IMG/VR virus record: IMGVR_UViG_2690316068_000002 | Origin: a virus | Lineage: Duplodnaviria; Heunggongvirae; Uroviricota; Caudoviricetes | DNA length: 64,000 nucleotides | Strand: one strand, 5' to 3' | Shown: piece by piece, positions 10,064 to 55,808 of the stretch | How the letters are laid out: the number at the start of each line of letters is the position of its first letter | How positions within the stretch are numbered: the stretch's first letter is position 1 | Program-made: the position numbers and the translations under genes | Notes under the pieces: generated by a model | Database searches by the model: none | Seen by the model: the letters and a program-made list of their open reading frames with translations, nothing else | What the model was told of the DNA's origin: nothing

Positions 10064-10136
10064 TTCTTGCTCCTACAAAAAGGGTGGGCGTATAGCCCAC
10101 CCTTAAACATAGATAATTACTTATCTACCACACTGA

Positions 10137-11012: not shown

Positions 11013-11037
11013 CTATCAATTCCCTTTGATTTAGATG

Positions 11038-11925
11038 TTACTTAAGTCCAATTTTCCCCAGACCGGAGGCCAACTTATCCATAGTCGACTTGTTCTTCGG
11101 TTGGGATATTGTGTAGGTCGATTTGGAATGTGAGCCTACACCCTGCTTGGCTTCGCTACGCATCAATGCGTCAGCTTCCGGATCTGCCCGCACAATGCGT
11201 TCAATCGCGGATTCAAACGGCAACGGCTTACCTTCACCGTCAACCAGAACAGCTCGTTCTTTGTGACCTGCCGGTTTGTCATAACCCACTACGCTACCGT
11301 CTTCACCCACTTCAAAATGAGAACCGTAGATCACGCGGGCTTTTGCCGGGGTCATCAGAACTTTGTCACGTAGGAAGAGAGAGTTACTGAAGGAAGCGCC
11401 CACGGTCATCTCGACTAATTGAGATTTCAGTGATGCGTTTTCACTTTCCAGTGCTGCATAACGTTCGTCACGCTGTGCCAGCTCTGCCTGGTGTGCTTCG
11501 ATCATCTGTTTTTTAACAGCATCGAACTCACCACGACGCTCCAGTTCAGCTTGCTCCGCCTCACGACGTGCGTTTTCTGCGGCCTGTTCAGCTTCTAAAA
11601 GCTGGCGAGCACGAGCCGGATCGATATCACCGTACTGAGCAAGCTGATCGGCCAATGTGCGCTCTTTCTCTTTGCGCTTCATGTTCTCCTTCAGCAGTTC
11701 AGCACCAGCTTTCTTGGTTTTACGAAGTTCGGCCAGTAACTCTTCCTGAGTCATGCCAGCGTATTCGTCATCGCCCTTCGGCTGCTCTTTTTGTTCACCC
11801 TGTTTGTCAGGATCTTGTGTACTCTGCTCATTATCAGCAGCTACACCGCCAGCGCCTCCACGCTCATGCGCTTCAGCGACATCCATCAGACCACGACGGG
11901 CCAAAAGCATTTGCCACAGATTCAT
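11038..11925 (-). CDS. Scaffolding protein
   Basis: 295 aa, highly charged coiled-coil-type composition (EAEQAAENARREAEQAELERR...), between portal and capsid genes. Confidence 0.6.
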   Translation of the reverse strand: MNLWQMLLARRGLMDVAEAHERGGAGGVAADNEQSTQDPDKQGEQKEQPKGDDEYAGMTQEELLAELRKTKKAGAELLKENMKRKEKERTLADQLAQYGDIDPARARQLLEAEQAAENARREAEQAELERRGEFDAVKKQMIEAHQAELAQRDERYAALESENASLKSQLVEMTVGASFSNSLFLRDKVLMTPAKARVIYGSHFEVGEDGSVVGYDKPAGHKERAVLVDGEGKPLPFESAIERIVRADPEADALMRSEAKQGVGSHSKSTYTISQPKNKSTMDKLASGLGKIGLK

Positions 11926-11946
11926 AAAAATTCCTTTTGTTACTTA

Positions 11947-13521
11947 TCACTCGTTCTCTTGAGTAGATGAGTCCCCATTCCCTCGGGGTTGATCTTGCCC
12001 GCTTTCTTGGGCTGCACCACGATCATAAGTAAGTACTGACTTATTTTCAAGGGTATTTAGATCATTTTTTGGAGGAAAATTCAAGAGATCTTTATCAAAT
12101 TCCTTTTTCATCGCCTCAGTAATGTTCGGGAAAATCTTCTCAATAAGCATTTCCATCTGGTGACGACGTACAGAGTCCGGTGCCTGAAGTAATGACAGTT
12201 TCTCGGCAACAGAAAATTCATCAGTAAGGCCACGAATATCGAAACTTTCTGGATACGCAATTAAAGAGTGGTCTTCGTCCAGATCTACCCCCATCCATTT
12301 CGCAACCAGTAGCATGATTTGGCGTTCAGCCCTTTCCAGACGCTCTGCTTTTGTGACAAGCAAGCTATTTACACGCTGGAAGTCATACATTTTTGCGGCA
12401 CCAGATGAATTATCGATTCCCTGTGCGTTGTCCTGCTTCGTTCGCTCACCAGCTACACCAACTGAATGGTAGATTTCGTTAATCACCGTCTTAATCGTAG
12501 TGATGATCATCTGAGCTTGTTTCGGGTCTGGTGACAGATAAAACGGCTGGTTTCCACCTTCAGAATCGTAGGTGAAGACTCGCTTTGTGCCCATTTCAAG
12601 CACTTTAGTGTGGTTTTCATCACCAGGTAAAAGCGACTGTACCGGTATAGCCAACTGGCTAAATGTCTGATCCTGAATAATGGCATCAAGGTTTGACAGA
12701 TAGTTTGCAACCGCACGATCAAGATAAGCGATATCATCGATCAACGATGGGCTGAAATACGGTGATTCACTTTCTCCAATACAATCAACAGGAAACACAG
12801 GAACTACGCCGAGATTATGCGCGCCGCTGTCCTCTAAAATAACTTTTGCCTGACGACGACCTGCTCCACCAGCCCCCTTCTTCACTTCCTCACGGAACAG
12901 ATACCACTCGTTTTGTGTCCACAGACGATAACGTTGGTATTCCTGACCTGTAGAAGTAAAAGGATCTGCGTCATCGCGAGCGACTTCCACAATTAACGCC
13001 CATAACATATTCCCGTCGTCGTCCCATGCCACATCCAGCATTTGCTGAGGTGAAATCCAGTAGGCGTAGGCGCGAGCATCTTTCTTTTTCTCGTCAGCTA
13101 CTGACTCAACATCACCACTCATCGTGCTATCGACAACAACCCATATGCGACCGTAAATAGACGACTGCAAATCAATAGCGGCCATAAATGAGTCAATAGA
13201 GGCATTCTGGCGAGTCGCACGTTTCCAGAAATTGCGGATCTGCTCTGGTGCCTCTTCGATATTTCTATGAATGTCTTCTTTAAAGAGATATTTGTTGATG
13301 AGGTTTACCACCTCACGAGTGTGGTTGAAGCGATAAGCACGCTCAACTCGCTCCTTAAACTCCTGATCTCCCTCTTTAAAGTAACGAAAGATATTGTCTG
13401 TAAACCAACCACGCCCGCCAGCGTAAGTGCTGGCGAGGAAGTCCCAATGTTCTTTTTTCTTTTCGTATTCCGGGTGGCGTCGCGCCACCAGATCCTTAAT
13501 TTGTTTGTCGTTCAATTCCAT
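11947..13521 (-). CDS. Portal protein
   Basis: 524 aa, immediately downstream of large terminase and upstream of scaffold; acidic C-terminus. Confidence 0.7.
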   Translation of the reverse strand: MELNDKQIKDLVARRHPEYEKKKEHWDFLASTYAGGRGWFTDNIFRYFKEGDQEFKERVERAYRFNHTREVVNLINKYLFKEDIHRNIEEAPEQIRNFWKRATRQNASIDSFMAAIDLQSSIYGRIWVVVDSTMSGDVESVADEKKKDARAYAYWISPQQMLDVAWDDDGNMLWALIVEVARDDADPFTSTGQEYQRYRLWTQNEWYLFREEVKKGAGGAGRRQAKVILEDSGAHNLGVVPVFPVDCIGESESPYFSPSLIDDIAYLDRAVANYLSNLDAIIQDQTFSQLAIPVQSLLPGDENHTKVLEMGTKRVFTYDSEGGNQPFYLSPDPKQAQMIITTIKTVINEIYHSVGVAGERTKQDNAQGIDNSSGAAKMYDFQRVNSLLVTKAERLERAERQIMLLVAKWMGVDLDEDHSLIAYPESFDIRGLTDEFSVAEKLSLLQAPDSVRRHQMEMLIEKIFPNITEAMKKEFDKDLLNFPPKNDLNTLENKSVLTYDRGAAQESGQDQPRGNGDSSTQENE

Positions 13522-13547
13522 TTGAATAACCTTAGATAATTACTTAC

Positions 13548-14804
13548 CTATCTAGAACCACCAAGAATAACACGGTTTTTGACTGGATACCTACGATGTA
13601 CTGGATAGCCCAATGCGTCTGCACTATGCTCAATGCCACCTGTCTTATCCATATCTCGTGTTCCAGGCTTGTAGATGACTTTTTCCAATGAATCAATCAA
13701 ATGCTTGCACTTCGGATCGATATACAGCCGGATATCTCCAGATGCGGTCATCAGCATTCGGTTAACAGCATTAACACGATCCGCAATTGGCGGGTGCTTT
13801 TTCGAATAATCGACACGTAAGAATCCCTTCTCTTTGAATATGTCGACGTCAGACTCCCCGCGAGCATGTTGGCGATAAGCACCTGCCGGATCTGGAAATA
13901 CCGTTATCTGTGATTTCCAGCGCCAGAAGCGTCTCTCAAGCTCATCACAAACCTCTGCCGTGTTAGAGGAAAAGAGCACCAATTCATCAATTGCCCATAG
14001 CTCACCATTTGGCTGAGGTTGCAAAATTACTGAAGACATCGGGTCAATGTTGAAGTCCTGCCCTACCCATATAGGCAACCGAGGGTTGAACTGAAGCGGT
14101 TTTACATGCACGTTACGATCGAACGGGTAGTAAACGCGCCCGGACATGTTCTCAAAGCTCGCCAGGTACTCCTGAGCGAACGATTTCGGGTCCATATCGT
14201 TCTTAGCAGCTTCAATTTCCGCCGTAGGCACAAACGGAGAATCAGCAGTTACAAACTGCCAGCTCTTCCACTGTCCCTTTCTTTGCAGCTCTACGTTCTG
14301 GCCTATAGTCCACAGTTTGTGAAATTCCGAGAAGCCTTTTGGCGTACCAATGATCAGTGCACCGCCGCGTGTCGATGAAAGAGTAGGTCGTAACACCTTG
14401 TACCAAGTGTCAGCCTTCATATCCTGAAATTCATCAAGCACTACAAAATGCAACGCTACGCCGCGCAGAGTGTCAGGCTTATCAGCACCTTTGAGGGCGA
14501 TCTCCGAACCGTTCTTCAACACGATTGTCATCGTGGTGTCGTTCTTTTTCCTAACCCACTTACGAGGCAGAACTTCCTGTAGATCGTCCCACAAAATCTG
14601 GCGAGCCATCTGGTAAGTAGGAGCGACATACCAGACCCTTTGCTTTTTTTCCTTTGCCGCCGCACGAATAATAGTGGAGATCGACAACCGGGATTTTCCC
14701 CAGCGTCGACCAGCACAAACAACTTTAAATCGATGCGGAGACTGGAAGACTTTCATCTGTCCAGAATGCAGTTGCACAAGACTGAGCGAGGACGGGATTG
14801 CCAT
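13548..14804 (-). CDS. Terminase large subunit
   Basis: 418 aa; Walker A (CAGRRWGKS), Walker B (HFVVLDEFQD), C-terminal nuclease-type acidic motifs (WVGQDFNIDP). Confidence 0.85.
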   Translation of the reverse strand: MAIPSSLSLVQLHSGQMKVFQSPHRFKVVCAGRRWGKSRLSISTIIRAAAKEKKQRVWYVAPTYQMARQILWDDLQEVLPRKWVRKKNDTTMTIVLKNGSEIALKGADKPDTLRGVALHFVVLDEFQDMKADTWYKVLRPTLSSTRGGALIIGTPKGFSEFHKLWTIGQNVELQRKGQWKSWQFVTADSPFVPTAEIEAAKNDMDPKSFAQEYLASFENMSGRVYYPFDRNVHVKPLQFNPRLPIWVGQDFNIDPMSSVILQPQPNGELWAIDELVLFSSNTAEVCDELERRFWRWKSQITVFPDPAGAYRQHARGESDVDIFKEKGFLRVDYSKKHPPIADRVNAVNRMLMTASGDIRLYIDPKCKHLIDSLEKVIYKPGTRDMDKTGGIEHSADALGYPVHRRYPVKNRVILGGSR

Positions 14805-15436: not shown

Positions 15437-15550
15437 AGATCCCTCTAAAACACACAGAGCGCGTCCATGCGCTCTAAAACAACTTGTTTACTGCATCTGC
15501 TAACCAACTTGTTTTCTGGGTTGTTTAATTAGGTCTGGCATGTCTTACGA

Positions 15551-16798: not shown

Positions 16799-17460
16799 AA
16801 ATGAACCTCATCATGACTACCATTGTGATATTCCACCTTCACGCGTTCTTTGTAGTGCTTGGTGATCTGCATATCCGGGCGCAGCGCGTTCTTCAGGTCT
16901 TCGTGAGTCGTCGCCACCATTACCGTCGCACCAACCTTTCGAGCGGCACGCTGGAGGTTAGATGCCACAACCTGAGCGGTTACACGGTCTAGAACAGCAC
17001 CGAACTCGTCAGCAGCCCACACTTTAGCGCCTGACTCAATCAGTTTGGCAATCTTGAGACGATATTTCTGACCGTCTGACATTTCAGAAGGCTTGCGAAC
17101 AAACAGATATGCATCGTTCAGACCAGCCATAGATAACAACCCAAGCGCATCGCTGGTCGTTTTGCCCAACTGATCGATGACGTTAACCTCATTATCGAAG
17201 GTAAAATCATCGATGGAGGCTACAGACAGCCCTTCATCCTTCATCTGTCGTTGCAACTCGCGCAGCACAACGGATTTGCCGGAACCGGATTGGCCGGTGA
17301 TGTACACCACATCGCCCTGCTTCACTTCCAGCTCCAGATTGTCGTAAAGCGTCCACTCTTTTTCGTCCAGGCCAAGCCCGAACGACTCAGCGATTTCCAA
17401 CGTGCGCGTGGTTTTATTTACGCGTGTCTGAAACGATACGTTGATGATGTATTTGCTCAT
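16795..17460 (-). CDS. Stand-alone ABC-type ATPase
   Basis: 221 aa; Walker A GQSGSGKS, ABC signature-like SDGQKYRL, Walker B VWAADEF, H-loop TTHED. Confidence 0.7.
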   Translation of the reverse strand: MSKYIINVSFQTRVNKTTRTLEIAESFGLGLDEKEWTLYDNLELEVKQGDVVYITGQSGSGKSVVLRELQRQMKDEGLSVASIDDFTFDNEVNVIDQLGKTTSDALGLLSMAGLNDAYLFVRKPSEMSDGQKYRLKIAKLIESGAKVWAADEFGAVLDRVTAQVVASNLQRAARKVGATVMVATTHEDLKNALRPDMQITKHYKERVKVEYHNGSHDEVHL

Positions 17461-18158
17461 GCAGCCATCTCCCCGGAAGAGATCTTCTCCGCATATGCCA
17501 CAAATGCGTCTACCCCGCTTTCTCCCGTCATTTCTTCCATGTGGGCAAGCAAATCACCAACAACAATGGCAGAGCCAGCAGGAAGCGTTTTAAAGCCCAA
17601 TACGTCGACAACACGTACTTCTTCCGCTGCAACTTCACGACTGATCTCGGTGTGTTCATCCTTCTGTCGTTTAGTTTCTTCGCCAAGATCGATAACTAGC
17701 GAGTCGGTGTCCATTTCTTCTGTCATGCTGCCAACGAGAACATTCAACTCACGCTCTTCAAAGCCGAAAACCTCGATATCGTCCAGAACAAGCGACTCAA
17801 GCTCTTTCTGTAGCTTAATTGCATCGTAATCAATGCTGGCAAGTCGGTTATCTTCAAGGCGCTTCGCACGAACCTCGTCATCACTGAGATCATCGCGAAC
17901 AATAACCGGTACGCGCTCAAGTCCAGCAAAAATTGCAGCCTCACGGCGGCCGTGGCCAGTAATAATTACGTCGTTCTTATCGACCGTAATTGGCTGGTCA
18001 AATCCGCGCTTTTTAATGGCTGCGGCTAGATCTCGGATCTGCTGTTCATCATGCTTTTTGGCATTCATCTCATAGGGAATAAGATCTGCCGGGTCGCGAT
18101 ATACGATTTCAAACTTTTTGGTCATTACATACGCTCCTTGTAGTAGTCGACCAGCCAC
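17457..18158 (-). CDS. ParB N-terminal domain (ParB/Srx-like) protein
   Basis: 233 aa; ParB-type motif ITGHGRREAA; acidic C-terminal half. Confidence 0.6.
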   Translation of the reverse strand: MAGRLLQGAYVMTKKFEIVYRDPADLIPYEMNAKKHDEQQIRDLAAAIKKRGFDQPITVDKNDVIITGHGRREAAIFAGLERVPVIVRDDLSDDEVRAKRLEDNRLASIDYDAIKLQKELESLVLDDIEVFGFEERELNVLVGSMTEEMDTDSLVIDLGEETKRQKDEHTEISREVAAEEVRVVDVLGFKTLPAGSAIVVGDLLAHMEEMTGESGVDAFVAYAEKISSGEMAA

Positions 18159-18823
18159 ACCAGAGCCTCACCAGCGTTCTCCATTTCATTACCGGTGTTA
18201 ATAGCCTGCTCTTTGATGATGTTTTTTATGGTTTCTGCAACACGATCTGACGCATCGAAAGTTACTTTGAAGCGCATGGTCTGATGTTCCGCCCCCACAC
18301 GTTCGGTTTTCTCTCGTTTGTCGGTATCGACAGGCTCATCACTACCACGAGACAACGCCTCCAGTGCTTCAAGGTCGATTGCCGCCTCTTTTGCTAAAAC
18401 CATCGAGATTTCGTCGTCATACGGGGCGATTTCAGACAGTTGATAGTCAAGTTCTGACTGAATTTCTTCAATGAAGCGTTGCAATGCGATTTGGTCGTCT
18501 TCACCGTATCGCTCGTTGTCCACCAGTGACATCTGTTTAGCTACGACATCGCTAATTTTGCCCACAGAAAGCACCGGAACCGTTGAAATTCCTTGCTCAA
18601 TAGCAGCACGCCAGCGATGTTCGCCGCCGAGGATTTCAAAAAATCCATCTTCAAGTTCACGAGCCAAAATTGGCTTAAAAAAGCCCAATTTTTCGATAGA
18701 ACCTTTCAGTTTTTCAAAATTCTGCGCACCAACCGAATTGGTGTTCCAGGTATTCGGGCGAAGGTTGGCAACATCAACCTGCAAAATCGTGATTTTTACA
18801 TCCATTTTATTGCTACAATCCAC
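18125..18823 (-). CDS. ParB-like nuclease domain protein
   Basis: 232 aa; ParB-box-like ILGGEHRWRAA. Confidence 0.55.
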   Translation of the reverse strand: MDCSNKMDVKITILQVDVANLRPNTWNTNSVGAQNFEKLKGSIEKLGFFKPILARELEDGFFEILGGEHRWRAAIEQGISTVPVLSVGKISDVVAKQMSLVDNERYGEDDQIALQRFIEEIQSELDYQLSEIAPYDDEISMVLAKEAAIDLEALEALSRGSDEPVDTDKREKTERVGAEHQTMRFKVTFDASDRVAETIKNIIKEQAINTGNEMENAGEALVWLVDYYKERM

Positions 18824-25348: not shown

Positions 25349-25698
25349 GATTGATTCCTTATCGTAAATAACAAATTGTTTTCTTGTTGGTGTTAATTAT
25401 CGTTGTACGAATAAGGCGTCAAAGTGGAAAGTTGCGGTAGCCGGACGGGAACAGGTGGGTTTGTCGGTTGCCTGGAGGTAAGAGGTTGGTGTTTTTAGCC
25501 TGCGGGAAACAGGATGGTCATTTAAGGCCACCAATGCTGATGGCCTTAATAATTATCGACCTATTACGCTAAGGATCTTTTCCTCAACTGATTTGTTGTT
25601 GCGACTAAACTGCCTTGCGTATCTGATGACAGAAGAGGCGTTTTGCTTTCTGACCATCTCGGCTCTTTCCTTCAGGCGTTTCTTGAAATCGCCCATAT

Positions 25699-26115
25699 TT
25701 ACCACCAGGCGCAGAAGGTCAGTCTGTTATTGTGAAAGTCGTGGTTCCTGATCAGGTCTTCCACAAGTTTTTTCAGCTTATCCACGTCATGCCAGTAACC
25801 TTCATCGTACTCCTGACTGCCGAAGAAAAAACCTTCCCGGGTAGGCAAGTACTCTTCGCAATTACTTTCGTTTATGTGCATCAAATGAGCCTTCAGAAAA
25901 CAAATGTCATTCATCGTTAATTCTAAAAGCTCACAATTTTCGACTTCACCTACGTTGCGCTCCATCCACCCAACGAGCGCATTGAACTTACGGAAGTAAG
26001 CAACCTGCTTTCTGGATGCCTCGTTATTCAGATCGTTTTTAGGCTGCGTCTCGATATAGATATCAAGTCCCATGATGGTTTCCTTATTAAGTTGCTTCAG
26101 TGAAATCATTTTCAC
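25699..26115 (-). CDS. Hypothetical protein
   Basis: 138 aa ORF (true start may be internal MGLDIY); motif-1 copy upstream (26128-26150). Confidence 0.45.
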   Translation of the reverse strand: MKMISLKQLNKETIMGLDIYIETQPKNDLNNEASRKQVAYFRKFNALVGWMERNVGEVENCELLELTMNDICFLKAHLMHINESNCEEYLPTREGFFFGSQEYDEGYWHDVDKLKKLVEDLIRNHDFHNNRLTFCAWW

Positions 26116-26190
26116 AAATCAGATAAGGCAGAAAACAAATTGTTATCGGGCATAAGAAAATGGCGCGGTTTACGCGCCATTCAAAGAGGA

Positions 26191-26652
26191 TTAAGCGAAT
26201 ACGCTTTCAGGGATTAAGGTGTCGGCAGGAATGCCAGAGGTAATGCGCAGACCGTACTGGCCAATCCAGGTGGTGCTGGTGTTCAGGCTGGAGGCGAATA
26301 CGGTGTTAACCATATTCATCATGGTTTCAAACACCTCTTCGTCAACCTGGCGGAAGTAGTTCTCGATTTTCAGCAGCAGCGGGTCAGTTGCATCGAGAAT
26401 GGACTGGTATTGAGTCGCGTACTCGCCGCCGGAGGCATCACCTTTACGCACGATCGTACTGGCCTGGACTTCGGCACCAGTTTCGGTGTTGTACGTAACA
26501 ACGGTGATTTTTGCCACATTCTTACCTTCGGCGGTTTCAGAGGCATAGTAAACATCAACTGTCAGTTTTTCGCGTTTAACGGTCATTTCACTCTCCGTAG
26601 TGTATTGGTTATTTTTATATTCTATGATCGTAAGTATGTACTTACAATACAA
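26191..26652 (-). CDS. Hypothetical protein
   Basis: 153 aa ORF-track call; likely start is the internal Met (MTVKREKL, ~26586) since the extension runs into a terminator hairpin. Confidence 0.45.
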   Translation of the reverse strand: MYCKYILTIIEYKNNQYTTESEMTVKREKLTVDVYYASETAEGKNVAKITVVTYNTETGAEVQASTIVRKGDASGGEYATQYQSILDATDPLLLKIENYFRQVDEEVFETMMNMVNTVFASSLNTSTTWIGQYGLRITSGIPADTLIPESVFA

Positions 26653-26678
26653 AAAAGCCCCGTAAGGATGGCGGGGCT
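26650..26678 (-). terminator. Rho-independent terminator
   Basis: agccccg-taaggatgg-cggggct hairpin with T-run on the minus strand, downstream of the gene ending at 26713. Confidence 0.55.
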
Positions 26679-26712
26679 GTCGTACTGTCGACTAATTACC
26701 ACTTGCACATTA

Positions 26713-27054
26713 TCAGGCTATTGCCATCACTGATGCTCTCTGAATTTCTTGCTGGGCCACGCGGTTAACTTCCATCAAGGCCAGTTCGAGCTGATGTTCC
26801 GGCCACATTCTTTGAAATGCCACCCATCCTTTTCCACGCTGGCGACGAACATTCATTACATAACGAGTAAAGGTGTTTTTATCGAAAGACACCGCTGTTT
26901 CACGGAACAGACGAATAGAGGTTCCATTGGCAACGATGTCCAGCAAAGTTAATTGAGCAACCAGCGCAGGCTTCTCTTTTCTCTTCTGGTCTTTGTCCAG
27001 ACCAAGAACCAATGATTTTTTCATTACAACTCCGTAAACAACTTGTTTTCTCAA
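26713..27054 (-). CDS. Hypothetical basic protein
   Basis: 113 aa ORF-track call; probable start at the internal MKKSLVLG; motif-1 upstream (27045-27068). Confidence 0.45.
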   Translation of the reverse strand: MRKQVVYGVVMKKSLVLGLDKDQKRKEKPALVAQLTLLDIVANGTSIRLFRETAVSFDKNTFTRYVMNVRRQRGKGWVAFQRMWPEHQLELALMEVNRVAQQEIQRASVMAIA

Positions 27055-27177
27055 TGGCGTAAATAATACCAGTAAGAAAACGGCTACAAAGCATATTGAT
27101 CAGGTGCATGAGCGATATGCAGGTTCTTCCCTGCGGCTATAGAGAAATTAAGCCAGCAATGCTGGCTTTGGTTGAGG

Positions 27178-27525
27178 TTACGCGAATACCTCAAGAAATT
27201 CCTGAACGTCCCAATGCTGGACAAGGTGAAGATAGACCTTAGAAATCACGTCATTCTCGCTATCGCATGTGAAGTAGTACTTCTGGCTGCGGTTGTATGT
27301 GTCTACACAAAATTCGCTCATATCCATAAAGTCAGCATCTTCACCCATGTCGCAAATCATCAAAGCAGGTGCGTCATCACGAGTCATCAGCTCAAGCACC
27401 CACCGCGAATTGATCAGAGTGGAAGACCAACCTTCTAACTCATAAAACTGATCAAACTCTTTTTGAGTTAATTTCTTGATTTGGTTGATGTCGATATTTG
27501 CAAACATAAAGCAATCCTTAAACAA
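27178..27525 (-). CDS. Hypothetical acidic protein
   Basis: 115 aa ORF; motif-1 immediately upstream (27527-27565). Confidence 0.5.
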   Translation of the reverse strand: MFKDCFMFANIDINQIKKLTQKEFDQFYELEGWSSTLINSRWVLELMTRDDAPALMICDMGEDADFMDMSEFCVDTYNRSQKYYFTCDSENDVISKVYLHLVQHWDVQEFLEVFA

Positions 27526-27864
27526 GATGTTTTCTTAATGGTGTTATTATCGCAATAACGCACAGGCGAAAAAGGATTTTATTCCGGTGAATGTGGTTTT
27601 GGCAGTGAGTTTTCAGGTTCAGTACCGAGTACACTTTTTACATTATTCTGATTTAGTGGCCGAAGGTGGCTGGTGGGCAGAATAATCCTCTCCCCGAAAA
27701 CCTACTGAAATCGATTGTGACCCGTTGGCTGTCTGGCACAATTACGCTGTAGCTGGGCATTCAGAGGGAGTCCAACGGTAAGTTAGTCCGCCTGCACGTG
27801 AGCGCCTCTCTTCTTCCCGCACATTACAGGTGTGTAGCCGCAACTCTCCCTCTCGCTATACCGG

Positions 27865-28010
27865 TACGCCGCCGTTCCTGAACCGGCATCGATCCTTTTC
27901 CCGAAATCCATACAGGCAACTCGACCGTTTCCCTGAAAATCCCCAGCCGTTCCCCGAAGGCAACCCAGCCATTTCTGTAGCGGGATGCAACCTTTTCCCT
28001 GTATGGACCG
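27865..28010. repeat. Iteron-like direct repeat cluster 2 (CCGTTTCCCTGAAA-type)
   Basis: Six imperfect direct copies (gccgttcctgaa, ccttttcccgaaa, accgtttccctgaaaa, gccgttccccgaa, gccatttctg, accttttccctg) at ~24-30 bp spacing; same repeat family as 24700-24860. Confidence 0.65.
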
Positions 28011-28039
28011 AAGGCTGACCGTAGGGGTGTTACGGGGGA

Positions 28040-28920
28040 TAAAATCAGGAGTTGAATAAATACGAAAAAGGAGGCGACACCCCTCCTTCCCTCCCCACTT
28101 ATACATACCTGGCTTCTTCGCTATACATGTTGTGTTTTCTTCGTGTTTTATCTGTCTCAACCTCTCTATAGGCGTTAATGCTCACTCCTTCCAGAACGTT
28201 CTATACGGCGACTATTTCTGTTGGTGAATTGGGTGTGTTGTTTTCTCTGTCGGTGTATGTGGTTTCGTTCGTTTTGCGGTGGTTCTTCTAGGGGGTGTTC
28301 TCGTCGTTTTGGTGATTGTTCTTCTCCATGTATGGAGTAATGGCAGGTGGGCGATTCCTTTCGTTATTGTGTTTGAGTTGTTTGTCTGGAGTGTGTGAAA
28401 GGCTTTTGTAGTTATTCGTGTATTGGGTAATGGCGTTTCCCGTGATTGTTATGCTTCGAGTCTTTTGGGATTGAGAGAATCCTTGCGGTTACAGGCTTCG
28501 TTGGGGTTTCAGTGATTCTGGTGTTTCTTCGCTGTTTGGGGAATGGCGTGTCGTGGGTATCGCGCGTATGAATGTTTTCGGATTGCCTGTGAAAGTTAGG
28601 TTGGTTGTCCGGTAGCCTGGGAAGAAGAGGTGGGTCTTTTCGGTAGCCTGCCATAAAGAGGTTGGTTGTTTTGGGTAATGGCATATGTGTTATTTAGTTG
28701 TTTTGTTATGCCTGAAAATAAGTTGTTTATATGGTTGTGTAACGCAACGGGAGCGATTTTGAGCGTGTGTTTTTGTTGGTAGTGTGTTGGGTCGTCTGTG
28801 GTGAAAATTGGACGCTGTGGCGCTGTCTGCTGCGTAGAATTACGGGTATAAGAAGTGATGTGTGAATACGTCAATTTTTTAGACCAAATCGGGTGAAAGC
28901 GTTGACGTTTCGTTGATCTG
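28040..28920. other. ORF-free, strongly GT-skewed region with loose ~100-bp periodic motifs
   Basis: About 75% G+T on the plus strand over ~0.9 kb; recurring GG(G/A)TAATGGC and GGTAGCCTG...AGAGGTnGGT motifs; no credible ORF on either strand. Confidence 0.6.
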
Positions 28921-29081
28921 TTATTTAGTTGTTTTCTTATTGGTATAAACAACGTTAACCTATTGATATTTAAAGGTGTGATTGCAGGTATGGAAGAAGA
29001 GTAGTGGCGATCAACGGATTCTTATAGAAAAGAATCAAATTGTGACCGCCATTATCAACTGATTGATTAAGCTAATTACAC

Positions 29082-30311
29082 TCAAACATCCCCGTTCTTA
29101 ATCCACTGCCTGACTTGCTCGTCTTGTGCGACTTCTTTCTCATGTTTGGCAATATACAAGTCTGGCAATAGGGGTGGAGCGAATTCAGGCTCTGTCGCAC
29201 GCCACTTTTCATATGCGTCACGCATGGATTTCTCAACATTCCAATGCTCCAACTCTTGGTATTCAATCGGCCAGTTATCCTGCAATCTCTTCACTGCATT
29301 AGCCAGGTCGTATCGGAAGTAAGGATTAAGACCAATGAAATTACCAGCCAGCATGTCATCAACCTCCTTCACTCTGGCAATCTTAGAAAACTTACCAATA
29401 GCAATGTTGAGGTCCCAATCTGACACGAACAACAAAAGTGCTGCAAATGCCAGAAACTTAGCTTCCCCGTATGCTCTGTCGCTAACCGTTTTTGTCTGAA
29501 ACTCAATGTAATTGCCCATCACAAAACTAGTAAGCTTATAGGTCTTACTTATCTCGTCCTCCAAATGCGATGGATCGAGAATTGTGCGGTCACGATTATT
29601 GTTTATGTGTTCTAAGATTACAGCAATGTCTCTATGTGAGACTGAAATTTCACGCAATTGCTGGAGAGTCTTGATGTGAACTCTTAGCACCTCTTTGTCA
29701 ATCGCACGCTTCCAAGAAAAACCAGGCACAGTAACCTGAATGGGCGCGAAAGGTAGAATATCAGGAGTTGTCCATGCTAGATATGCATCACGTAACCCAC
29801 TAATATAATAAAGCCAGTCTAAATGCTCGCTTTCTAACCATATTTCAAATGTGGAATCCTTTCGCTTATTGAAGAACCATTCCCTCATCTGCCACATTTT
29901 TTCTTGAGTAAATATCCCTTCCTGTATGCCGGCACAGACCAGCTTTCGTATTACCTGCGAATACTTTGTTCGATCTTTTGTGAATGAGACAAGGTGCTGC
30001 TTCACCTCAGATGTTAGTCTATCTCCATAGAAATCACATGATGGATGATGGCCTTGACCATCTTCACCGGTAAATCTGAAATGCGCCTTCTTGTGATAGC
30101 CACCATTCCTAGTGGCTCTAACGAACGAACCACCTCCAACTTTGCAAATGGGGCAGATGATATCGTCACGGGCAATAGCATGAACCGAGCTGTCATCTAA
30201 ATTCTTTAGCGCCAAGTACTGCTCAGGATCGACTTCTTTTTGTAACGATTTTGAAAAAGCGGTATCAGTCATTCCAAGCTCCGAGCAAGGGGTTATTTGT
30301 TCAATTATCAT
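29082..30311 (-). CDS. Hypothetical protein with N-terminal Cys/His zinc-ribbon-like motif
   Basis: 409 aa; CPICK...(28 aa)...HHPSCDF cluster near N-terminus; no other recognisable domain. Confidence 0.55.
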   Translation of the reverse strand: MIIEQITPCSELGMTDTAFSKSLQKEVDPEQYLALKNLDDSSVHAIARDDIICPICKVGGGSFVRATRNGGYHKKAHFRFTGEDGQGHHPSCDFYGDRLTSEVKQHLVSFTKDRTKYSQVIRKLVCAGIQEGIFTQEKMWQMREWFFNKRKDSTFEIWLESEHLDWLYYISGLRDAYLAWTTPDILPFAPIQVTVPGFSWKRAIDKEVLRVHIKTLQQLREISVSHRDIAVILEHINNNRDRTILDPSHLEDEISKTYKLTSFVMGNYIEFQTKTVSDRAYGEAKFLAFAALLLFVSDWDLNIAIGKFSKIARVKEVDDMLAGNFIGLNPYFRYDLANAVKRLQDNWPIEYQELEHWNVEKSMRDAYEKWRATEPEFAPPLLPDLYIAKHEKEVAQDEQVRQWIKNGDV

Positions 30312-30442: not shown

Positions 30443-30751
30443 CTACCAACACCAGCACTCAAGCCCTTCAACGATCGGCGCACCACAATCAAAATGTACA
30501 GAGTCAAAGCCTACATCAAGTACTTTCTGAATGTTAGCAATCGCGCCTTCGGATATACCATATCGACGCAAGTTGTCTTTCCAGACATCATCCTGTAACC
30601 CGGCGTGGACAATACAACCGCCGTCAATTTGTGAAACCCAATCCAGCTCATTGCTTGCGATCATGAACCGGCGAGCATCTTCCTCTGATGTATGAGATGA
30701 ACTGATCAATGCCACCTGGTAGGCTTGGGTAATGTTCAACATTTCAACCAC
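30443..30751 (-). CDS. Hypothetical protein
   Basis: 102 aa ORF; motif-1 copies in both orientations immediately upstream (30754-30825). Confidence 0.5.
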   Translation of the reverse strand: MVEMLNITQAYQVALISSSHTSEEDARRFMIASNELDWVSQIDGGCIVHAGLQDDVWKDNLRRYGISEGAIANIQKVLDVGFDSVHFDCGAPIVEGLECWCW

Positions 30752-30903
30752 TCCGAAACAATTTGTTTTCTTATGTGGCTTATTATCTCAATCAACAAAA
30801 GGTAGAAAACAAATTATTTTAGGGCTTGTGTAAATCAGGAGGGATTGTGTCTATATGAAAATGCCCAGCGTGTTGCCGGGCATTGTGAAGAATGGTTGTT
30901 TAG

Positions 30904-32937
30904 TTACTTAACTTGGTGGCCTGGTTTAGCACCAGCATCCGGGCTTAACAGGAAGATATCTTTTCCGCCAGGGCCAGCAGCCATCACCATGCCTTCAGAG
31001 ATACCGAAGCGCATTTTACGCGGAGCCAGGTTAGCCACCATAATTGTGTGACGACCAATCAGTGCCTGTGGGTCTGGATAAGCAGAACGGATGCCTGAGA
31101 AGACATTACGCTTTTCACCACCGAGATCCAGTGTCAGGCGCAACAGTTTGTCAGAACCTTCAACAAACTCCGCGTTTTCAATCAGCGCCACACGCAGGTC
31201 AACTTTGGCGAAGTCGTCAAAGGTGATGGTTTCCTGAATCGGGTCGTCAGCCAGTGGGCCAGTTACCGGTGCGGCTGTGGCTTTCACTTCTTCTTTGGAT
31301 GCTTCCACCAGTGCTTCCACCTGTTTCATATCGATACGGTTATACAGTGCCTTGAACGGATTCACTTTATGGCCCAGCAGCGGTTGCTGGATACCATCCC
31401 AGGTCAGTTCTGTATTCAGGAATGCTTCTGCACGTTCAGTCAGTTTCGGCAGTACCGGTTTCAGGTACGTCATCAGCACGCGGAACAGGTTAATGCCCAT
31501 AGAGCAAATCGCCTGCAGATCGGCATCGCGCCCTTCCTGCTTCGCCACCACCCACGGAGCCTGTTCATCGACATAGCGGTTAGCCAGGTCAGCCAATGCC
31601 ATGATTTCACGGATAGCTTTACCAAATTCGCGGCTTTCCCATGCTTCGCCAATCACTTCAGCGGCATCAGTAAAGGTTTTGTACAGTTGCGGGTCAGCCA
31701 GTTCGCTTGCCAGCACGCCGTCAAAACGCTTGTTGATAAAGCCTGCATTACGGGAGGCCAGGTTAACCACTTTGTTCACGATATCGGCATTCACGCGCTG
31801 AACGAAATCCTCCAGGTTGAGATCGATATCATCAATGCGCGAAGAGAGTTTCGCAGTGTAGTAGTAACGCAGGCTGTCGGCGTCAAAATGATTCAGCCAG
31901 GTGCTGGCTTTAATAAAGGTGCCGCGAGACTTGGACATCTTCGCGCCGTTCACCGTCACATAGCCATGAACAAACAGGTTGGTCGGCTTGCGGAAGTTGC
32001 TGCCTTCCAGCATGGCAGGCCAGAACAGGCTGTGGAAGTAAACAATATCTTTACCGATGAAGTGGTACAGCTCGGCGGTGGAGTCTTTCTTCCAGTATTC
32101 ATCGAAGCTGGTGGTATCGCCGCGCTTGTCGCACAGATTCTTGAAGGAACCCATGTAGCCAATCGGCGCGTCCAGCCAGACGTAGAAATATTTGCCCGGC
32201 GCGTTCGGAATTTCAAAACCGAAGTAAGGCGCATCTCGGGAGATATCCCACTGTTGCAGGCCGGATTCAAACCATTCCTGCATTTTGTTCGCCACCTGCT
32301 CCTGCAACGCGCCGCTGCGGGTCCATGCCTGCAACATTTCGCTGAAAGAAGGCAGATCAAAGAAGAAGTGTTCGGAATCACGCATTACCGGGGTAGCGCC
32401 AGAAACCACCGATTTCGGCTCGATCAATTCAGTCGGGCTATATGTTGCGCCGCAGACTTCACAGTTATCGCCGTATTGATCTGGCGCTTTACATTTCGGG
32501 CAGGTGCCTTTTACAAAACGATCCGGCAGGAACATGCCTTTTTCCGGGTCGTACAACTGAGAGATAGTGCGGTTTTTAATAAAACCGTTCTCTTTCAGGC
32601 GAGTATAGATAAGCTCAGACAACTGACGGTTCTCTTCGCTGTGCGTCGAGTGATAGTTGTCATAGCTGATGTTAAAGCCTGCGAAATCAGTCTGGTGTTC
32701 CTGACTCATTTCGCCAATCATCTGCTCCGGTGTGATACCAAGCTGCTGTGCTTTCAGCATGATCGGCGTACCGTGGGCATCGTCGGCACAGATGAAATTA
32801 ACCTCGTGGCCGCGCATTCGCTGGTAACGAACCCAGACATCAGCCTGGATGTGCTCCAGCATATGGCCGAGGTGGATTGAGCCGTTAGCGTACGGCAGCG
32901 CGCACGTCACCAGAATTTTCTTCGCGACTTGGGTCAT
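30904..32937 (-). CDS. metG: Methionyl-tRNA synthetase
   Basis: 677-aa product from [29 protein letters not shown] (HIGH motif), KMSKS motif, C-terminal tRNA-binding domain; near-identical to enterobacterial MetG from memory. ORF-track upstream extension (to 33066) rejected. Confidence 0.95.
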
Positions 32938-33094
32938 AGTAGGCATTACTTCTTTGTAGTGAAAAGGGGCTTGATAGTAACAAAATGGCCTTATGTCTGC
33001 CATGTGATAACAGCATTTCTCATAAATGATTAAATGTCGTAGCTGGAGTACACTACAAGGCGACAATTGCGCAAATTAAAATAAAGGAGACGGG

Positions 33095-34195
33095 ATGAGC
33101 GAGTCCAAATCGCCGGATGCCCTGAGAGCAATGGTAGCCGGTACGCTGGCTAATTTTCAGCACCCAACCCTGAAACACAACCTGACTACGCTTAAAGCGT
33201 TACACCATGTTGCGTTGATGGATGACACACTGCATGTCGAACTAATCATGCCTTTCGTGTGGAATAAGCCTTTTGAAGACCTGAAAGAGCAATGTAATGG
33301 TGATCTGCTCCGTATCACTGGCGCAAAGGCTATTGACTGGAAGCTGTCGTACAACATTGCCACGCTTAAGCGCGTCAAAAACCAACCAGGTATTAATGGC
33401 GTTAAGAACATTATCGCCGTCAGCTCAGGCAAGGGCGGCGTGGGTAAATCCTCCACGGCGGTAAACCTGGCACTGGCGTTGGCTGCTGAAGGTGCGAAAG
33501 TTGGTATTTTGGATGCCGATATCTATGGTCCATCAATTCCAACCATGCTGGGCGCGGAAAACCAACGTCCAACCTCACCTGACGGTACTCACATGGCACC
33601 TATCATGTCTCATGGCCTGGCAACCAACTCTATTGGTTATCTGGTCACCGACGACAATGCAATGGTGTGGCGTGGACCGATGGCCAGCAAGGCGCTGATG
33701 CAGATGTTGCAGGAAACTCTATGGCCTGATCTGGACTATCTCGTTCTCGATATGCCGCCGGGCACTGGTGATATTCAGTTGACGCTGGCGCAGAACATTC
33801 CTGTAACTGGTGCGGTTGTGGTAACTACGCCGCAAGACATCGCGCTGATCGATGCGAAGAAAGGCATTGTGATGTTCGAAAAAGTCGAAGTGCCGGTACT
33901 GGGTATCGTCGAAAACATGAGTGTGCATATTTGCAGTAACTGCGGTCATCACGAGCCAATTTTTGGCACCGGTGGCGCACAGAAACTGGCCGAGAAATAC
34001 AACACGCAGTTGTTAGGCCAAATGCCACTTCATATCTCTCTTCGTGAAGATCTGGATAACGGAACACCAACCGTTATTAGTCGTCCAGATAGCGAATTTA
34101 CGGCTATTTATCGTGACCTCGCAGATCGCGTTGCTGCCCAAATGTATTGGCAAGGTGAAGTAATACCTGGCGAAATCGCATTCCGCGCAGTGTGA
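33095..34195 (+). CDS. apbC: Fe-S cluster carrier ATPase ApbC/Mrp
   Basis: 366 aa; P-loop SSGKGGVGKSS, CxxC motif (CSNCGHH), divergent from metG as in enterobacterial chromosomes. Confidence 0.9.
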   Translation: MSESKSPDALRAMVAGTLANFQHPTLKHNLTTLKALHHVALMDDTLHVELIMPFVWNKPFEDLKEQCNGDLLRITGAKAIDWKLSYNIATLKRVKNQPGINGVKNIIAVSSGKGGVGKSSTAVNLALALAAEGAKVGILDADIYGPSIPTMLGAENQRPTSPDGTHMAPIMSHGLATNSIGYLVTDDNAMVWRGPMASKALMQMLQETLWPDLDYLVLDMPPGTGDIQLTLAQNIPVTGAVVVTTPQDIALIDAKKGIVMFEKVEVPVLGIVENMSVHICSNCGHHEPIFGTGGAQKLAEKYNTQLLGQMPLHISLREDLDNGTPTVISRPDSEFTAIYRDLADRVAAQMYWQGEVIPGEIAFRAV

Positions 34196-34232
34196 TAAAA
34201 AGGCGGTGCATTGCACCGCCTAATCAGTTCTC

Positions 34233-34622
34233 CTACATCACGGGACAATCATCAAACTCGCCACTTCTTGCGTCGTTGATAATGTGAGTGATCACACCAA
34301 ACACGGCATTGCTGCCCGTGCATCCATCGTCATCCTTTGGCAATGCTTCCTTCTTACCGGTTCTTAAATCCTCCAGATGCTGACGTGGATACTTCCGGTA
34401 TCTTTTTACGCGATATTCCCCATCCAGAGCGCATACAAGCAGAGAACCATCAACCGGGGTAAGTGAGGAATCGACCACCAGCAATGCACCCTGTAATATT
34501 CCCTCACGATGATGACTATCAGCTGCCCTCATGAAGTAGGTCGCTGAAGGATGTCTAATTATCTGCTGATCAAGAGAAATACGGCTCTCAGCATAATCCG
34601 CCGCAGGAGAAGGGAAGCCCAT
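34233..34622 (-). CDS. UmuD'-like S24 peptidase-family protein (N-terminally short relative to UmuD)
   Basis: 129 aa; begins MGFPSPAADY, i.e. at the position equivalent to the RecA-facilitated Cys24-Gly25 cleavage site of UmuD; Ser (ADSH) and Lys (RVKRY) positions conserved; C-terminal insertion relative to UmuD. Confidence 0.7.
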   Translation of the reverse strand: MGFPSPAADYAESRISLDQQIIRHPSATYFMRAADSHHREGILQGALLVVDSSLTPVDGSLLVCALDGEYRVKRYRKYPRQHLEDLRTGKKEALPKDDDGCTGSNAVFGVITHIINDARSGEFDDCPVM

Positions 34623-34638
34623 AATACTCGCCTCTTAA

Positions 34639-34658
34639 TACTGTATATACATACAGTA
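34639..34658. promoter_or_regulatory. LexA (SOS) box
   Basis: taCTGTatatacatACAGta, a perfect CTGT-N8-ACAG palindrome, 17 bp upstream of the UmuD'-like start codon and its AAGAGG Shine-Dalgarno. Confidence 0.75.
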
Positions 34659-35284
34659 TATGTTGAAGCTATATATTTTTGAACTCTATCTCTTAAAAAA
34701 GATGTTAATAAGATGCTAACTATTGAAAGGCATAAATATATACAATTCCAACAAACGTTATTTTTAACAAATTTTTTCTCTCTGTTGACTTTTGCGAAAG
34801 CCTTGTCTGGCCTAAATTGCGCGGAAGCTACTTTTTCCTTCCTGAGTTATCCACAGAGTTATGCACTTGCATGCATAACCTATACACACTATCTTAATTC
34901 GCAAGACACTGATGTTGCGGTATTGAAGGTTCATTGGGTTAAAAATAGACATTAAAAAGCCCAGTTGACTAGGCTGGGCTTTTTAAAAGGAAACAGAGTT
35001 TGCGGCTCTGTTCCTGAGCCATAAGTATCTGGCGACTGAATTAAGATTAACCGAATGTACTGGATTCATCAAGAAACGTTGAGTGGTCATACCAGGTAAT
35101 AATGACCATTTACTAAACATCGTTGTTCTCAAAGAAGATTTAAGTCCAGGTTTTTGGTGACTCTAAAACCTTACCTTAACTCGAAATCGTGCCGTAAGTA
35201 TCTGGCGACTACAGATATTGCAACTGCAAAGGCAAGCCCAAAGGTATTTGCAGCTAGGCGCGATAAAACTAAGTGAGGCCTGTT

Positions 35285-35368
35285 ATGGTTAACTTACTGT
35301 TCAAAATCGTGCCGCCGATGTTCGCGATTATCAAAGCGATCATTGAGTACGTAAACCAGCGTCCATAA
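35285..35368 (+). CDS. Candidate 27-aa hydrophobic peptide (MVNLLFKIVPPMFAIIKAIIEYVNQRP)
   Basis: Short ORF followed by a hairpin (ggccccatcaagagcatggggcc); lies in an intergenic block with 16-bp perfect direct repeats (taagtatctggcgact at 35023 and 35205). Confidence 0.25.
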   Translation: MVNLLFKIVPPMFAIIKAIIEYVNQRP

Positions 35369-35423
35369 CGCTAGTTGCTACAGGCCCCATCAAGAGCATG
35401 GGGCCTCTTTATCGTACTATTGC

Positions 35424-36050
35424 TTATTTTTTACGGACTGAGTTGTTCACTGCTCTGGCAATCTTCTCCCGCAATTGCTGCGTTCCGTGGTACTGAACCG
35501 CAATATCTCTCAACTCGTTCACCAGTTCTCGAATCTGGTGATCTTTAAGCTCATTATTTGGGTGATTGGTAACAACTCTGGTTAATTCACCCTTGTCTTT
35601 TGCTCTTACGTATGCAGCTCTTGTGCATTCGACCCATGTATTACCGCCTACATTAACTTCGTAGATTAGGCTGGACTTATCTGTCAATTCGGAACAAATA
35701 CGGGCCGTGGTCTGGCAACTAGAGCATTCGCAGTTATCGCGGAAACCGTGATCTACCGGTCGAGAAAGAGGTTTAACTTTTTCATCCAACTTCATCACAG
35801 CATCGTGATAAGCGTTCCAGCCGTCATCTTTACCAAGTTGATAAATCTCTGAAGGCTCCATGTAGTCTATATCGCAACCTTCTTCATCCGATCTATCTGG
35901 TCGCTTCCCTGGTAATCGCTCATAAAAACAATTTCTGTCTCGACGTTCGGCTCTCAGTGCTAACGCAAGAAGTTGCTCAAGCGAGGTATTTGCACCAGCA
36001 ATAATTTCATTGAGAATATCTTCTGTGAGATCTTTCGCTACCGTGCTCAT
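35424..36050 (-). CDS. Hypothetical protein
   Basis: 208 aa ORF, Cys-containing, no recognisable motif. Confidence 0.5.
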   Translation of the reverse strand: MSTVAKDLTEDILNEIIAGANTSLEQLLALALRAERRDRNCFYERLPGKRPDRSDEEGCDIDYMEPSEIYQLGKDDGWNAYHDAVMKLDEKVKPLSRPVDHGFRDNCECSSCQTTARICSELTDKSSLIYEVNVGGNTWVECTRAAYVRAKDKGELTRVVTNHPNNELKDHQIRELVNELRDIAVQYHGTQQLREKIARAVNNSVRKK

Positions 36051-40187: not shown

Positions 40188-40306
40188 TCTTAACTCCGTT
40201 GTTTTCTAGTTGTGGTTATTTTCACAAATAAGAAAAGGTAGAAAACAATTTATTTAAGGCCACAACTTATGGCCTTTATTTATTCATGCCGAAGGATTTG
40301 TAGCGT

Positions 40307-44780: not shown

Positions 44781-44820
44781 CTTAAACAAGTTGTTTTCTT
44801 ATTGGCTTTATTGTGATGTG
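44781..44820. promoter_or_regulatory. Palindromic upstream motif family 1, representative copy
   Basis: cttAAACAAgTTGTTTtcttattggctttattgtgatg; AAACAA-N-TTGTTT inverted repeat about 20-45 bp upstream of the start codon. Confidence 0.5.
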
Positions 44821-45488: not shown

Positions 45489-45581
45489 GTGCTTTCCTTT
45501 TGTTATTTGTTAAAACAAGTTGTTTTCTAGTTACATGAATTGCTTACGAAAAGACGGTCAATGCATATGCACTAACAACCG

Positions 45582-55708: not shown

Positions 55709-55808
55709 GTGTTTTTCCTTTTTTGATGTGTTTAAACAAGTTGTTATCTTATGTGTTTAAACAAGGCTTACAAATCAAAGATAAGGTGGGGATATACCCC
55801 ACCATATG

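Follow-up and report, generated by a model that had tools for sequence, protein, structure and literature searches.

A metG-apbC pair, probably captured from a host and maintained, in the cargo slot of SSU5-like phage-plasmids of Escherichia

The DNA analysed here is a 64,000-nt stretch of a tailed virus (IMG/VR record IMGVR_UViG_2690316068_000002), called the window below; inside it, two genes of bacterial housekeeping type stand between phage genes. They are metG, which encodes methionyl-tRNA synthetase (MetRS), and the divergently oriented apbC (also named mrp), which encodes an Fe-S cluster carrier. The pair is genuine, and our analysis indicates that it is probably an anciently acquired and selectively maintained host-derived moron, or auxiliary gene cassette, of Escherichia-associated SSU5-like phage-plasmids; its benefit to the element is one that we infer. 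The original prediction, made from the letters of the window, had placed a divergent, host-type metG/apbC pair at 30830-34230. Both open reading frames (ORFs) are indeed intact and oriented as on the chromosome, and comparison with relatives sets the borders of the insert within ~10 nt of those positions (Table 1). Among the origins that it had offered, capture of housekeeping genes by a phage-plasmid agrees with our results, the flanks being collinear with one single element in the plasmids pTB212 and pHNAH968.

The metG-apbC pair is carried by an SSU5-like phage-plasmid

The Escherichia coli plasmid pRHB31-C19_2 (CP057251.1, 110,652 bp) is collinear with the window and 99.96% identical to it (18 mismatches in 49,333 nt); the 5.2 kb surrounding metG-apbC are 100% identical. 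Close relatives are pLF82 (phage Cyrano), CMS-2020a, PhiR41_1 and pECOH89, and in the region examined Cyrano is 98-99% identical to the window. In the literature, pLF82/Cyrano and the pECOH89 relatives are described as SSU5-like phage-plasmids (PMC9928086, PMC3999498, PMC7969092). Cyrano/pLF82 is a phage-plasmid for which virions have been reported; it is kept at ~5.5 copies per cell and shares 81% identity with SSU5 over 65% coverage (PMC9928086). Homology to both SSU5 and pHCM2 has been reported for pECOH89 (PMC3999498).

According to the annotation of the near-identical record, the siphovirus set of structural and packaging genes is complete (tape measure, tail, major capsid, portal and terminase, at 57-14804), ParB-domain genes are located at 17457-18805, and PLSDB replicon typing gives rep_cluster_488 or IncFIB. 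The tail, capsid, terminase and ParB genes are on the left of the pair; humD, Ea22-like genes, rnhA, dam and nrdAB are on the right, and the window also contains dhfr and thyA. A tRNA scan and an Rfam scan at gathering thresholds over the window found nothing, and a permissive Rfam scan of 30700-35500 returned sub-threshold chance matches alone.

We searched 5426 complete E. coli genomes for the portal/terminase segment. It gave 245 matches in 237 genomes, every one on a plasmid of ~105-115 kb; no chromosomal copy was found. The carrier is an SSU5-like phage-plasmid of the SSU5_pHCM2 group, its relatedness to SSU5 being taken from the literature.

The pair occupies an exchangeable slot between conserved backbone genes

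Two backbone lineages of the element carry the pair: type 1 is the lineage of the window, and type 2 is a second lineage, represented by four loci (L087-L090) from third-party annotation (TPA) assemblies of E. coli. In type 2, metG-apbC is succeeded not by humD but by a BOF-domain gene, a hok-family toxin, a CCP_MauG cytochrome c peroxidase, cytochrome b562 and hsdS; an IS605-family OrfB and an Rpn (Transposase_31) gene stand on the left side. In the window, homology to the E. coli chromosome begins at the stop codon of metG and ends at that of apbC (30904 to ~34191), going no further on either side; neither of the chromosomal flanks, yehE and the DUF4132 gene, is present beside the pair. The GC content is 0.50-0.52 across the pair versus 0.43-0.46 in both flanks.

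In pTB212 (NZ_CP033252.1, locus L085), the flanks are ~90% identical to those of the window and collinear with them, and metG-apbC is missing; the slot is filled by a 933-bp DUF4145 gene segment (L085 3377-4309). The same flanks enclose other content (3522-4789) in pHNAH968 (locus L086), with a DUF4145 gene there too. Because the DUF4145 gene occupies the place of metG-apbC in both plasmids, we regard the slot as an exchangeable cargo site. The DUF4145 protein found there in relatives weakly matches PD-T7-4, an anti-phage system (E=3e-5).

On the left side of the slot, the DUF5983/AAACAANNTGTTTTCT region (30443..30819) is conserved in pTB212 and in type 2. On the right side, the UmuD-like gene is 84-89% identical to humD of P1, P7 and SJ46; strong induction of this humD-like gene in macrophages has been reported for LF82 (PMC9928086). 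The hairpin between the apbC and humD stop codons is followed by a U-run on the minus strand and by none on the plus strand. The original prediction had suggested a search for att-like direct repeats at the breakpoints; none were seen at either one by inspection of the junction sequences, and Tandem Repeats Finder reported nothing in 20-45 kb. The spacers beside the coding regions, 84 and 37 nt in length, have no match in 80 enterobacterial metG loci; they thus derive either from the element itself or from a donor sequence that has diverged.

Both genes are intact and keep their functional motifs

The MetRS of the window contains the catalytic domain PF09334 (residues 8-397, E=4.6e-166), the anticodon-binding domain PF19303 (416-540) and, at the C-terminus, the tRNA_bind dimerisation domain PF01588 (581-674). 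The motifs HLGH (at 22) and KMSKS (at 333) and the zinc knuckles CPKC (at 146) and CEVC (at 159) are all present. It is equal in length to the K-12 enzyme and differs from it by eight conservative residues (99% identical protein); at the nucleotide level, metG is 93.8% identical to that of K-12, with a ratio of nonsynonymous to synonymous substitution rates (dN/dS) of 0.019. MetRS is predicted to be a full-length, essentially wild-type enzyme. In PHROGs, it is matched by a full-length family, phrog_8598, which is labelled 'unknown function'. The metG terminator sits in the 84-nt spacer, which has no homology to any chromosomal metG downstream region examined; spacer and hairpin are common to the divergent type 2 lineage.

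ApbC matches PF10609 (Mrp/NUBPL ParA) with E=2.4e-102. The deviant Walker A motif GKGGVGKS (at 112) and the CXXC motif, CSNC (at 280), are kept in both type 1 and type 2 alleles. The gene is a plasmid-specific allele with an N-terminal deletion of three codons; compared to E. coli apbC, it is 82% identical in nucleotides and ~94.5% in amino acids, with a dN/dS of 0.023. A protein search with ApbC found no chromosomal protein closer than ~95%. In the Cyrano record (OV696614.1), ApbC (CYRAN_99) is labelled 'Septum site-determining protein MinD'.

The arrangement is widespread on plasmids and coexists with chromosomal metG

We defined plasmid-type metG as at least 95% identical to that of the window. 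The surveyed E. coli genomes contain it at 219 places, every one on a plasmid, and it is present in 219 of the 237 genomes bearing the portal/terminase segment. Chromosomal metG was found at 5423 places in the 5426 genomes, all 93.0-94.0% identical to the window gene; at least 216 of the 219 carriers therefore hold both copies, which answers the earlier question of a second, chromosomal copy.

In PLSDB, MetRS at ≥99% amino acid identity occurs in 192 records and ApbC at the same level in 189. Among the sampled rows, the MetRS match is full-length and in one piece in all but one case, and for ApbC 216 of 219 records cover ≥80% of the query. Taken together, ~190-220 independent plasmids have both genes intact. 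The hosts are E. coli, Shigella, E. albertii, E. fergusonii and E. marmotae, and the same arrangement is also found in deposited phage genomes. A few 'plasmid' matches in Klebsiella and Salmonella, at 90-96%, are apparently pieces of chromosome. The one inspected, K. pneumoniae 'plasmid' OW969824.1, has the ordinary chromosomal yehUT and yehWXYZ surroundings, and an independent capture in Klebsiella was rejected.

metG and apbC have evolved discordantly after a single old capture

The flanks of type 2 are 74-82% identical to the window, and its left junction, 84-nt spacer and metG terminator are as in type 1. Its ApbC has the identical three-codon N-terminal deletion and shares the derived residues S4, L41, K58, P59, N303 and M350, all absent from eight chromosomal orthologues. 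Because this diverged backbone has the left junction and the plasmid-specific apbC clade in common with type 1, the comparisons point to a capture of metG-apbC that was single and old.

The two genes differ greatly in their distance from the host. Between the window and K-12, the synonymous divergence (dS) is 0.31 for metG and 1.56 for apbC; between K-12 and the cryptic Escherichia sp. E1V33, it is 0.28 and 0.58, respectively. The metG distance is thus about that between E. coli and E1V33. For apbC, the nucleotide identity is 80-83% to each enterobacterial genus tested, with dS of ~1.4-1.6 or higher. In type 2, metG is 96.9% and the adjacent apbC 72.9% identical to K-12. Composition follows the same division: the GC content at third codon positions (GC3) of apbC is 0.52 in type 1 and 0.43 in type 2 versus 0.62 on the chromosome, the backbone being at 0.49, and that of metG is 0.61 versus 0.625 on the chromosome.

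Among type 1 alleles, apbC differs by up to 40 nt and 0-2 amino acids, and metG by up to 113 nt and at most five amino acids. Between type 1 and type 2, apbC is 24% apart in nucleotides and 19% in amino acids (70/366), with a dN/dS of 0.065. These values show purifying selection on the plasmid copies, strong in apbC, whose synonymous sites are saturated relative to every chromosome.

The metG alleles are mosaic. Compared to the window, metG of pTLYA2 has four nucleotide differences in its first 1122 nt and 50 in the next 612; its nucleotides 1225-1530 are nearer to K-12 (seven differences) than the window is (25 differences). Similar mosaic patches are present in the metG of PhiR41_1 and type 2. 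Since the alleles are mosaic, the simplest reading is that metG has undergone recurrent homologous exchange with Escherichia chromosomal alleles; apbC would stay outside this exchange because it is too diverged. The donor scan covered species-representative genomes: among the matches listed, Escherichia was represented by E1V33 and an E. coli-like genome labelled B56. The B56 genome is CP170191.1, labelled Enterobacter hormaechei; its metG has the same pairwise distances to the window as that of K-12 and, in the NG86 calculation, 0 substitutions versus K-12.

The divergent control region and expression of the pair

Both genes presumably have their promoters in the intergenic region. The ~50 nt beside metG are conserved with the chromosome in an alignment to K-12, including TGTTACTAT, a candidate extended -10 element by eye; by the same reading, TGnTACTAT is conserved. 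For the remainder, the best chromosomal similarity is to Citrobacter (77-79% over 130 nt). Across eight type 1 plasmids, the whole region is invariant save for one single-nucleotide polymorphism.

RNA-seq data of LF82 grown overnight in LB are available (PMC9928086, Table 1 and S1). The ApbC homologue CYRAN_99 reaches 91.7 normalised counts in these data, 9-fold above the Cyrano background, and is on the published moron list without comment. CYRAN_100 (MetRS) reaches 16.1 versus ~7-10 for structural genes, which is ~1.6 times a background of ~10, and is not on that list (PMC9928086). On these published data, apbC is transcribed in the plasmid-prophage state.

Other features of the window

The features of the locus are collected in Table 1. 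The AAACAANNTGTTTTCT motif is a partly palindromic 16-mer with 21 occurrences in the window versus 1.0 expected. At the sites compared with annotation, it lies ~10-50 nt upstream of the starts of leftward genes, where the copies are often inverted and overlapping. The motif resembles a dispersed operator or promoter element of the phage-plasmid, and the scattered C1 operators of P1 have a comparable layout. The original prediction had noted shared motif families on both flanks, and AAACAANNTGTTTTCT does occur on both sides of the pair. It had also noted matching iteron-type repeats on both flanks, which we could not confirm: the 36-nt repeat family is confined to the left (25461-28672), and the right carries a different, 20-nt pair (35018/35191).

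Table 1. Position of the metG-apbC pair, its borders and neighbouring features in the window
Feature	Coordinates	Strand	Remarks and basis
Cargo slot with metG-apbC	30820..34232	.	pTB212 homology to 30819 and from 34233
Slot edges			left, promoter/operator region of DUF5983 gene; right, humD stop codon
metG, methionyl-tRNA synthetase	30904..32937	-	677 aa, intact; translation, Pfam, motifs
metG intrinsic terminator	30853..30884	-	10-bp GC-rich hairpin then UUUUCAU; -16.9 kcal/mol, z=-6.2
Divergent intergenic region, presumed promoters of both genes	32938..33094	.	157 nt
apbC (mrp), P-loop Fe-S cluster carrier	33095..34195	+	366 aa, intact; translation, PF10609, motifs
GC-rich hairpin, humD terminator	34201..34221	-	between apbC and humD stops; -18.6 kcal/mol
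DUF5983 gene, left backbone neighbour	30443-30742	-	Pfam PF19419
Two inverted AAACAANNTGTTTTCT copies, operator-like	30756-30771 and 30804-30819		just upstream of DUF5983 start; motif search
humD/UmuD-like S24 peptidase gene, right backbone neighbour	34233..34622	-	Pfam PF00717
Perfect LexA box TACTGTATATACATACAGTA	34639-34658		17 nt upstream of humD-like gene; 0 mismatches
AAACAANNTGTTTTCT examples	15474-15517, 25366-25384, 26130-26148, 27033-27051, 27520-27535, 30756-30771		motif search
AAACAANNTGTTTTCT further examples	30804-30819, 40240-40255, 44784-44799, 45510-45528, 55734-55749		motif search

Directly left of the DUF5983 gene, a 396-aa ORF is located at 29082-30272; it has no Pfam domain and belongs to phrog_12525 (unknown function). 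The ORF is missing from pTB212, where a 186-nt annotated gene alone stands between the matching blocks, and it differs in Cyrano; the segment is a second variable slot. Next to it, ~1.5 kb (27540-29080) are without an annotated gene in the near-identical record and 72% identical to pTB212. This segment contains 36-nt repeats at 28606 and 28637 (related copies at 25461 and 25489) and three copies of TGTATTGGGTAATGGC; strand asymmetry is extreme at 28001-29000 (GC skew +0.33, AT skew -0.33). An origin or RNA region is possible, as are low-complexity ORFs on the minus strand.

On the other side of the pair, the segment 34960-35410 is gene-poor. The 20-nt direct repeats GCC[A/G]TAAGTATCTGGCGACT are located at 35018 and 35191, followed by a short hydrophobic ORF (35285-35368, MVNLLFKIVPPMFAIIKAIIEYVNQRP) and a strong terminator hairpin (35382-35406). 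This arrangement is reminiscent of a type I toxin locus; it has no Rfam match at threshold.

DISCUSSION

A model for the capture and maintenance of the cassette

In the explanation that we favour, one capture put the chromosomal metG-apbC unit, together with its divergent control region, into the variable slot between the DUF5983 and humD genes. As a resident of the element, apbC has since evolved with its composition shifting to that of the plasmid and its protein under tight constraint, and metG has stayed Escherichia-like, most simply through repeated exchange with host-type alleles. The cassette may be driven by its own native divergent promoters, without dependence on the lytic programme. 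With ~5 plasmids in each cell, it could add MetRS for the charging of Met-tRNA in initiation and elongation, and the plasmid apbC could add an Fe-S carrier adapted to the element. Such a role would fit with the other housekeeping enzymes and tRNAs that the element encodes itself (DnaE, primase, ligase, NrdAB, GrxA, ThyA, DHFR). As in other morons, the pair is a dispensable, variable insert between conserved backbone genes, as shown by pTB212, pHNAH968 and its presence in 219 of 237 genomes.

Several observations weigh against this explanation. With 99% identity to the host enzyme, the plasmid MetRS brings nothing qualitatively new, and ~8% of the related elements do without the pair. The low dN/dS of metG could partly reflect selection on chromosomal donor alleles. 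A sigma-70 consensus scan of the intergenic region found no strong site, the positions of the promoters being inferred, and metG stands at ~1.6 times background in the one available transcriptome, which leaves an effect of MetRS dosage unproven.

A more specific version of the benefit is possible but unlikely: the cassette could act as a 'translation and cofactor insurance' module, in which a multicopy replicon supplies its own Fe-S carrier and a MetRS that recombination keeps matched to the host, and so holds the charging of Met-tRNA above the threshold for slow growth or persister formation. With such a module, the plasmid would be able to replicate and to be induced productively even when its host is stressed or dormant, e.g. 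LF82 in macrophages; as a corollary, metG may also serve as a bridge for recombination, by which its alleles pass from one Escherichia species to another. In E. coli, antibiotic persistence increases when metG expression is reduced (PMC11004401), and a benefit against dormancy is therefore a testable hypothesis, not a result.

Alternative explanations

The pair might instead be a neutral passenger, brought in by one illegitimate recombination and cheap to carry; the essential gene on the chromosome would then keep metG intact through gene conversion, and apbC would hitch-hike beside it. That the plasmid MetRS is by sequence functionally indistinguishable from the host's, that its transcript is near background in LF82, that mosaic metG tracts show conversion to occur and that some relatives lack the pair would all suit a passenger. 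However, apbC, at 82% identity, is too diverged for chromosomal repair, yet up to 40 nucleotide changes among its alleles yield 0-2 amino acid changes; it is actively transcribed, and even the type 2 allele, with differences at 70 of 366 residues, retains Walker A and CXXC. Both genes have also outlasted the divergence of two backbone lineages, in a packaged genome of constrained size from which a useless 3.4 kb should be lost. We therefore consider a passenger unlikely. It is improbable that metG serves as a homology anchor, i.e. as 2 kb of ~94-97% host-identical DNA for recombination with the chromosome (reversible cointegration, mobilisation or allele shuttling) with enzyme activity being secondary. 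The mosaic metG does prove exchange within the gene, between plasmid and chromosome or between plasmids, and the host-like GC3 of metG, unlike that of the adjacent apbC, could be read in this way. But all 245 portal/terminase places are on plasmids and none is chromosomal, so stable integration is at best rare; the plasmid-type allele is on no E. coli chromosome, all being at most 94.0% identical; and an anchor needs no reading frame, which is kept in the full-length tblastn matches at ≥99% from ~190 plasmid records.

One further reading is that of an immunity or counter-toxin module. AtaT-like GNAT toxins acetylate aminoacyl-tRNAs, including Met-tRNAfMet, and second synthetase copies on mobile elements are a known route to resistance (mupA and others); the extra MetRS might buffer the cell against an attack on Met-tRNA charging, by the element's own AtaT-like toxin or by an external MetRS inhibitor. 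The parent plasmid and Cyrano do encode a DUF1778-GNAT pair whose toxin matches the AtaT/KacT structures 6GTS, 6AJM and 5XUN (E ~1e-75 to 1e-79). The link is weakened because pTB212 has the GNAT toxin-antitoxin pair without metG-apbC; moreover, the conservative changes in MetRS give no target-site resistance, acetylated Met-tRNA is not removed by more MetRS, and apbC is left without a role. Such an immunity or counter-toxin module is very improbable. The DUF1778 antitoxin and GNAT toxin genes lie outside the window, at 32253-33051 of CP057251.1 (L097) and as CYRAN_26/27 in Cyrano (L096 13191-14025). An artefact, finally, whether through misassembly into a chimera, through two prophage junctions lying side by side or through a single specialised transducing particle, would draw its sole support from the compositional jump and the host-like gene order, and is refuted. 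The chimera and the two prophage junctions had both been entertained in the original prediction; they are contradicted by phage records and ~190 closed plasmids, assembled independently in many laboratories, that have the identical arrangement, and by the relatives without the pair, in which the two flanks are collinear and belong to one element. The left junction is also common to a lineage with a backbone only 74-82% identical. A transducing derivative, likewise raised there, does not fit because the pair is diverged from any E. coli chromosome by 6% in metG and 18% in apbC and is fixed across the clade; with chromosomal metG at most 94.0% and apbC 82% identical, an element with no copy on the surveyed chromosomes and a backbone collinear with relatives, this candidate was rejected.

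Relation to known systems

The captured cassette is found at the same place, with no structural difference, in other E. coli members of the SSU5_pHCM2 group, namely pLF82/Cyrano, pECOH89, p09EL50, PhiR41_1 and CMS-2020a; the window genes and their Cyrano counterparts, CYRAN_100 (MetRS) and CYRAN_99, share 98-99% identity. Compared to the chromosomal metG-mrp(apbC) locus of Enterobacteriaceae, it has the same genes, divergent orientation, metG 5' leader, domains and catalytic motifs. Different from that locus, it lacks the yehE and DUF4132 neighbours and has its own terminators; its intergenic region is 157 instead of 131 nt in length and mostly unrelated to that of E. coli, and its apbC is shorter by three codons, 18% diverged in nucleotides and at the GC3 level of the plasmid.

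With phage morons and auxiliary metabolic genes, the pair shares its host derivation, a terminator on the metG side, a presumed promoter region, deviant composition, variable presence and, for apbC on the published data, expression in the lysogen. Virus-encoded aminoacyl-tRNA synthetases are known from giant viruses (Mimivirus MetRS) and huge phages; the carrier here is, by contrast, a temperate low-copy phage-plasmid of ~110 kb, and its MetRS is 99% host-identical, recombines with the host gene and is paired with an Fe-S carrier. Mobile second synthetases also serve in inhibitor resistance or producer immunity, as in mupA/ileS2, metS2 of S. pneumoniae and agnB2. Like these, the plasmid metG is an extra essential synthetase gene on a mobile element beside the chromosomal copy; however, they are strongly diverged, which is the basis of resistance, whereas the window MetRS differs from K-12 by the eight conservative residues. 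Specialised transducing phages such as lambda gal/bio likewise hold host genes within a phage genome, but the present element shows no integrated state, no att-adjacent origin and no loss of phage genes, and the cassette is not near-identical to the host and is fixed in a clade instead of occurring in one aberrant particle.

The existence of these genes is not new, since they are annotated in public records and PHROGs holds a matching MetRS family. In the literature searched, the pair is annotated at most, and we found no paper noting or analysing captured metG-apbC in SSU5-like elements; that the two genes evolved discordantly seems not to have been described before.

Significance

In about 4% of complete E. 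coli genomes (219/5426), a phage-plasmid brings a diverged apbC and duplicates metG, an essential gene; the family of this element also spreads CTX-M-15 and is present in the Crohn's-associated strain LF82. In such strains, the plasmid paralogue can confound typing or single-nucleotide polymorphism calling based on metG. The cassette also illustrates neatly, in nature, how two neighbouring captured genes can take opposite routes, one assimilating to the element and the other held with the host by recombination. If it is true that the extra MetRS and Fe-S carrier alter growth resumption, persistence or stress survival, the cassette would constitute an unexamined trait of lysogenic conversion.

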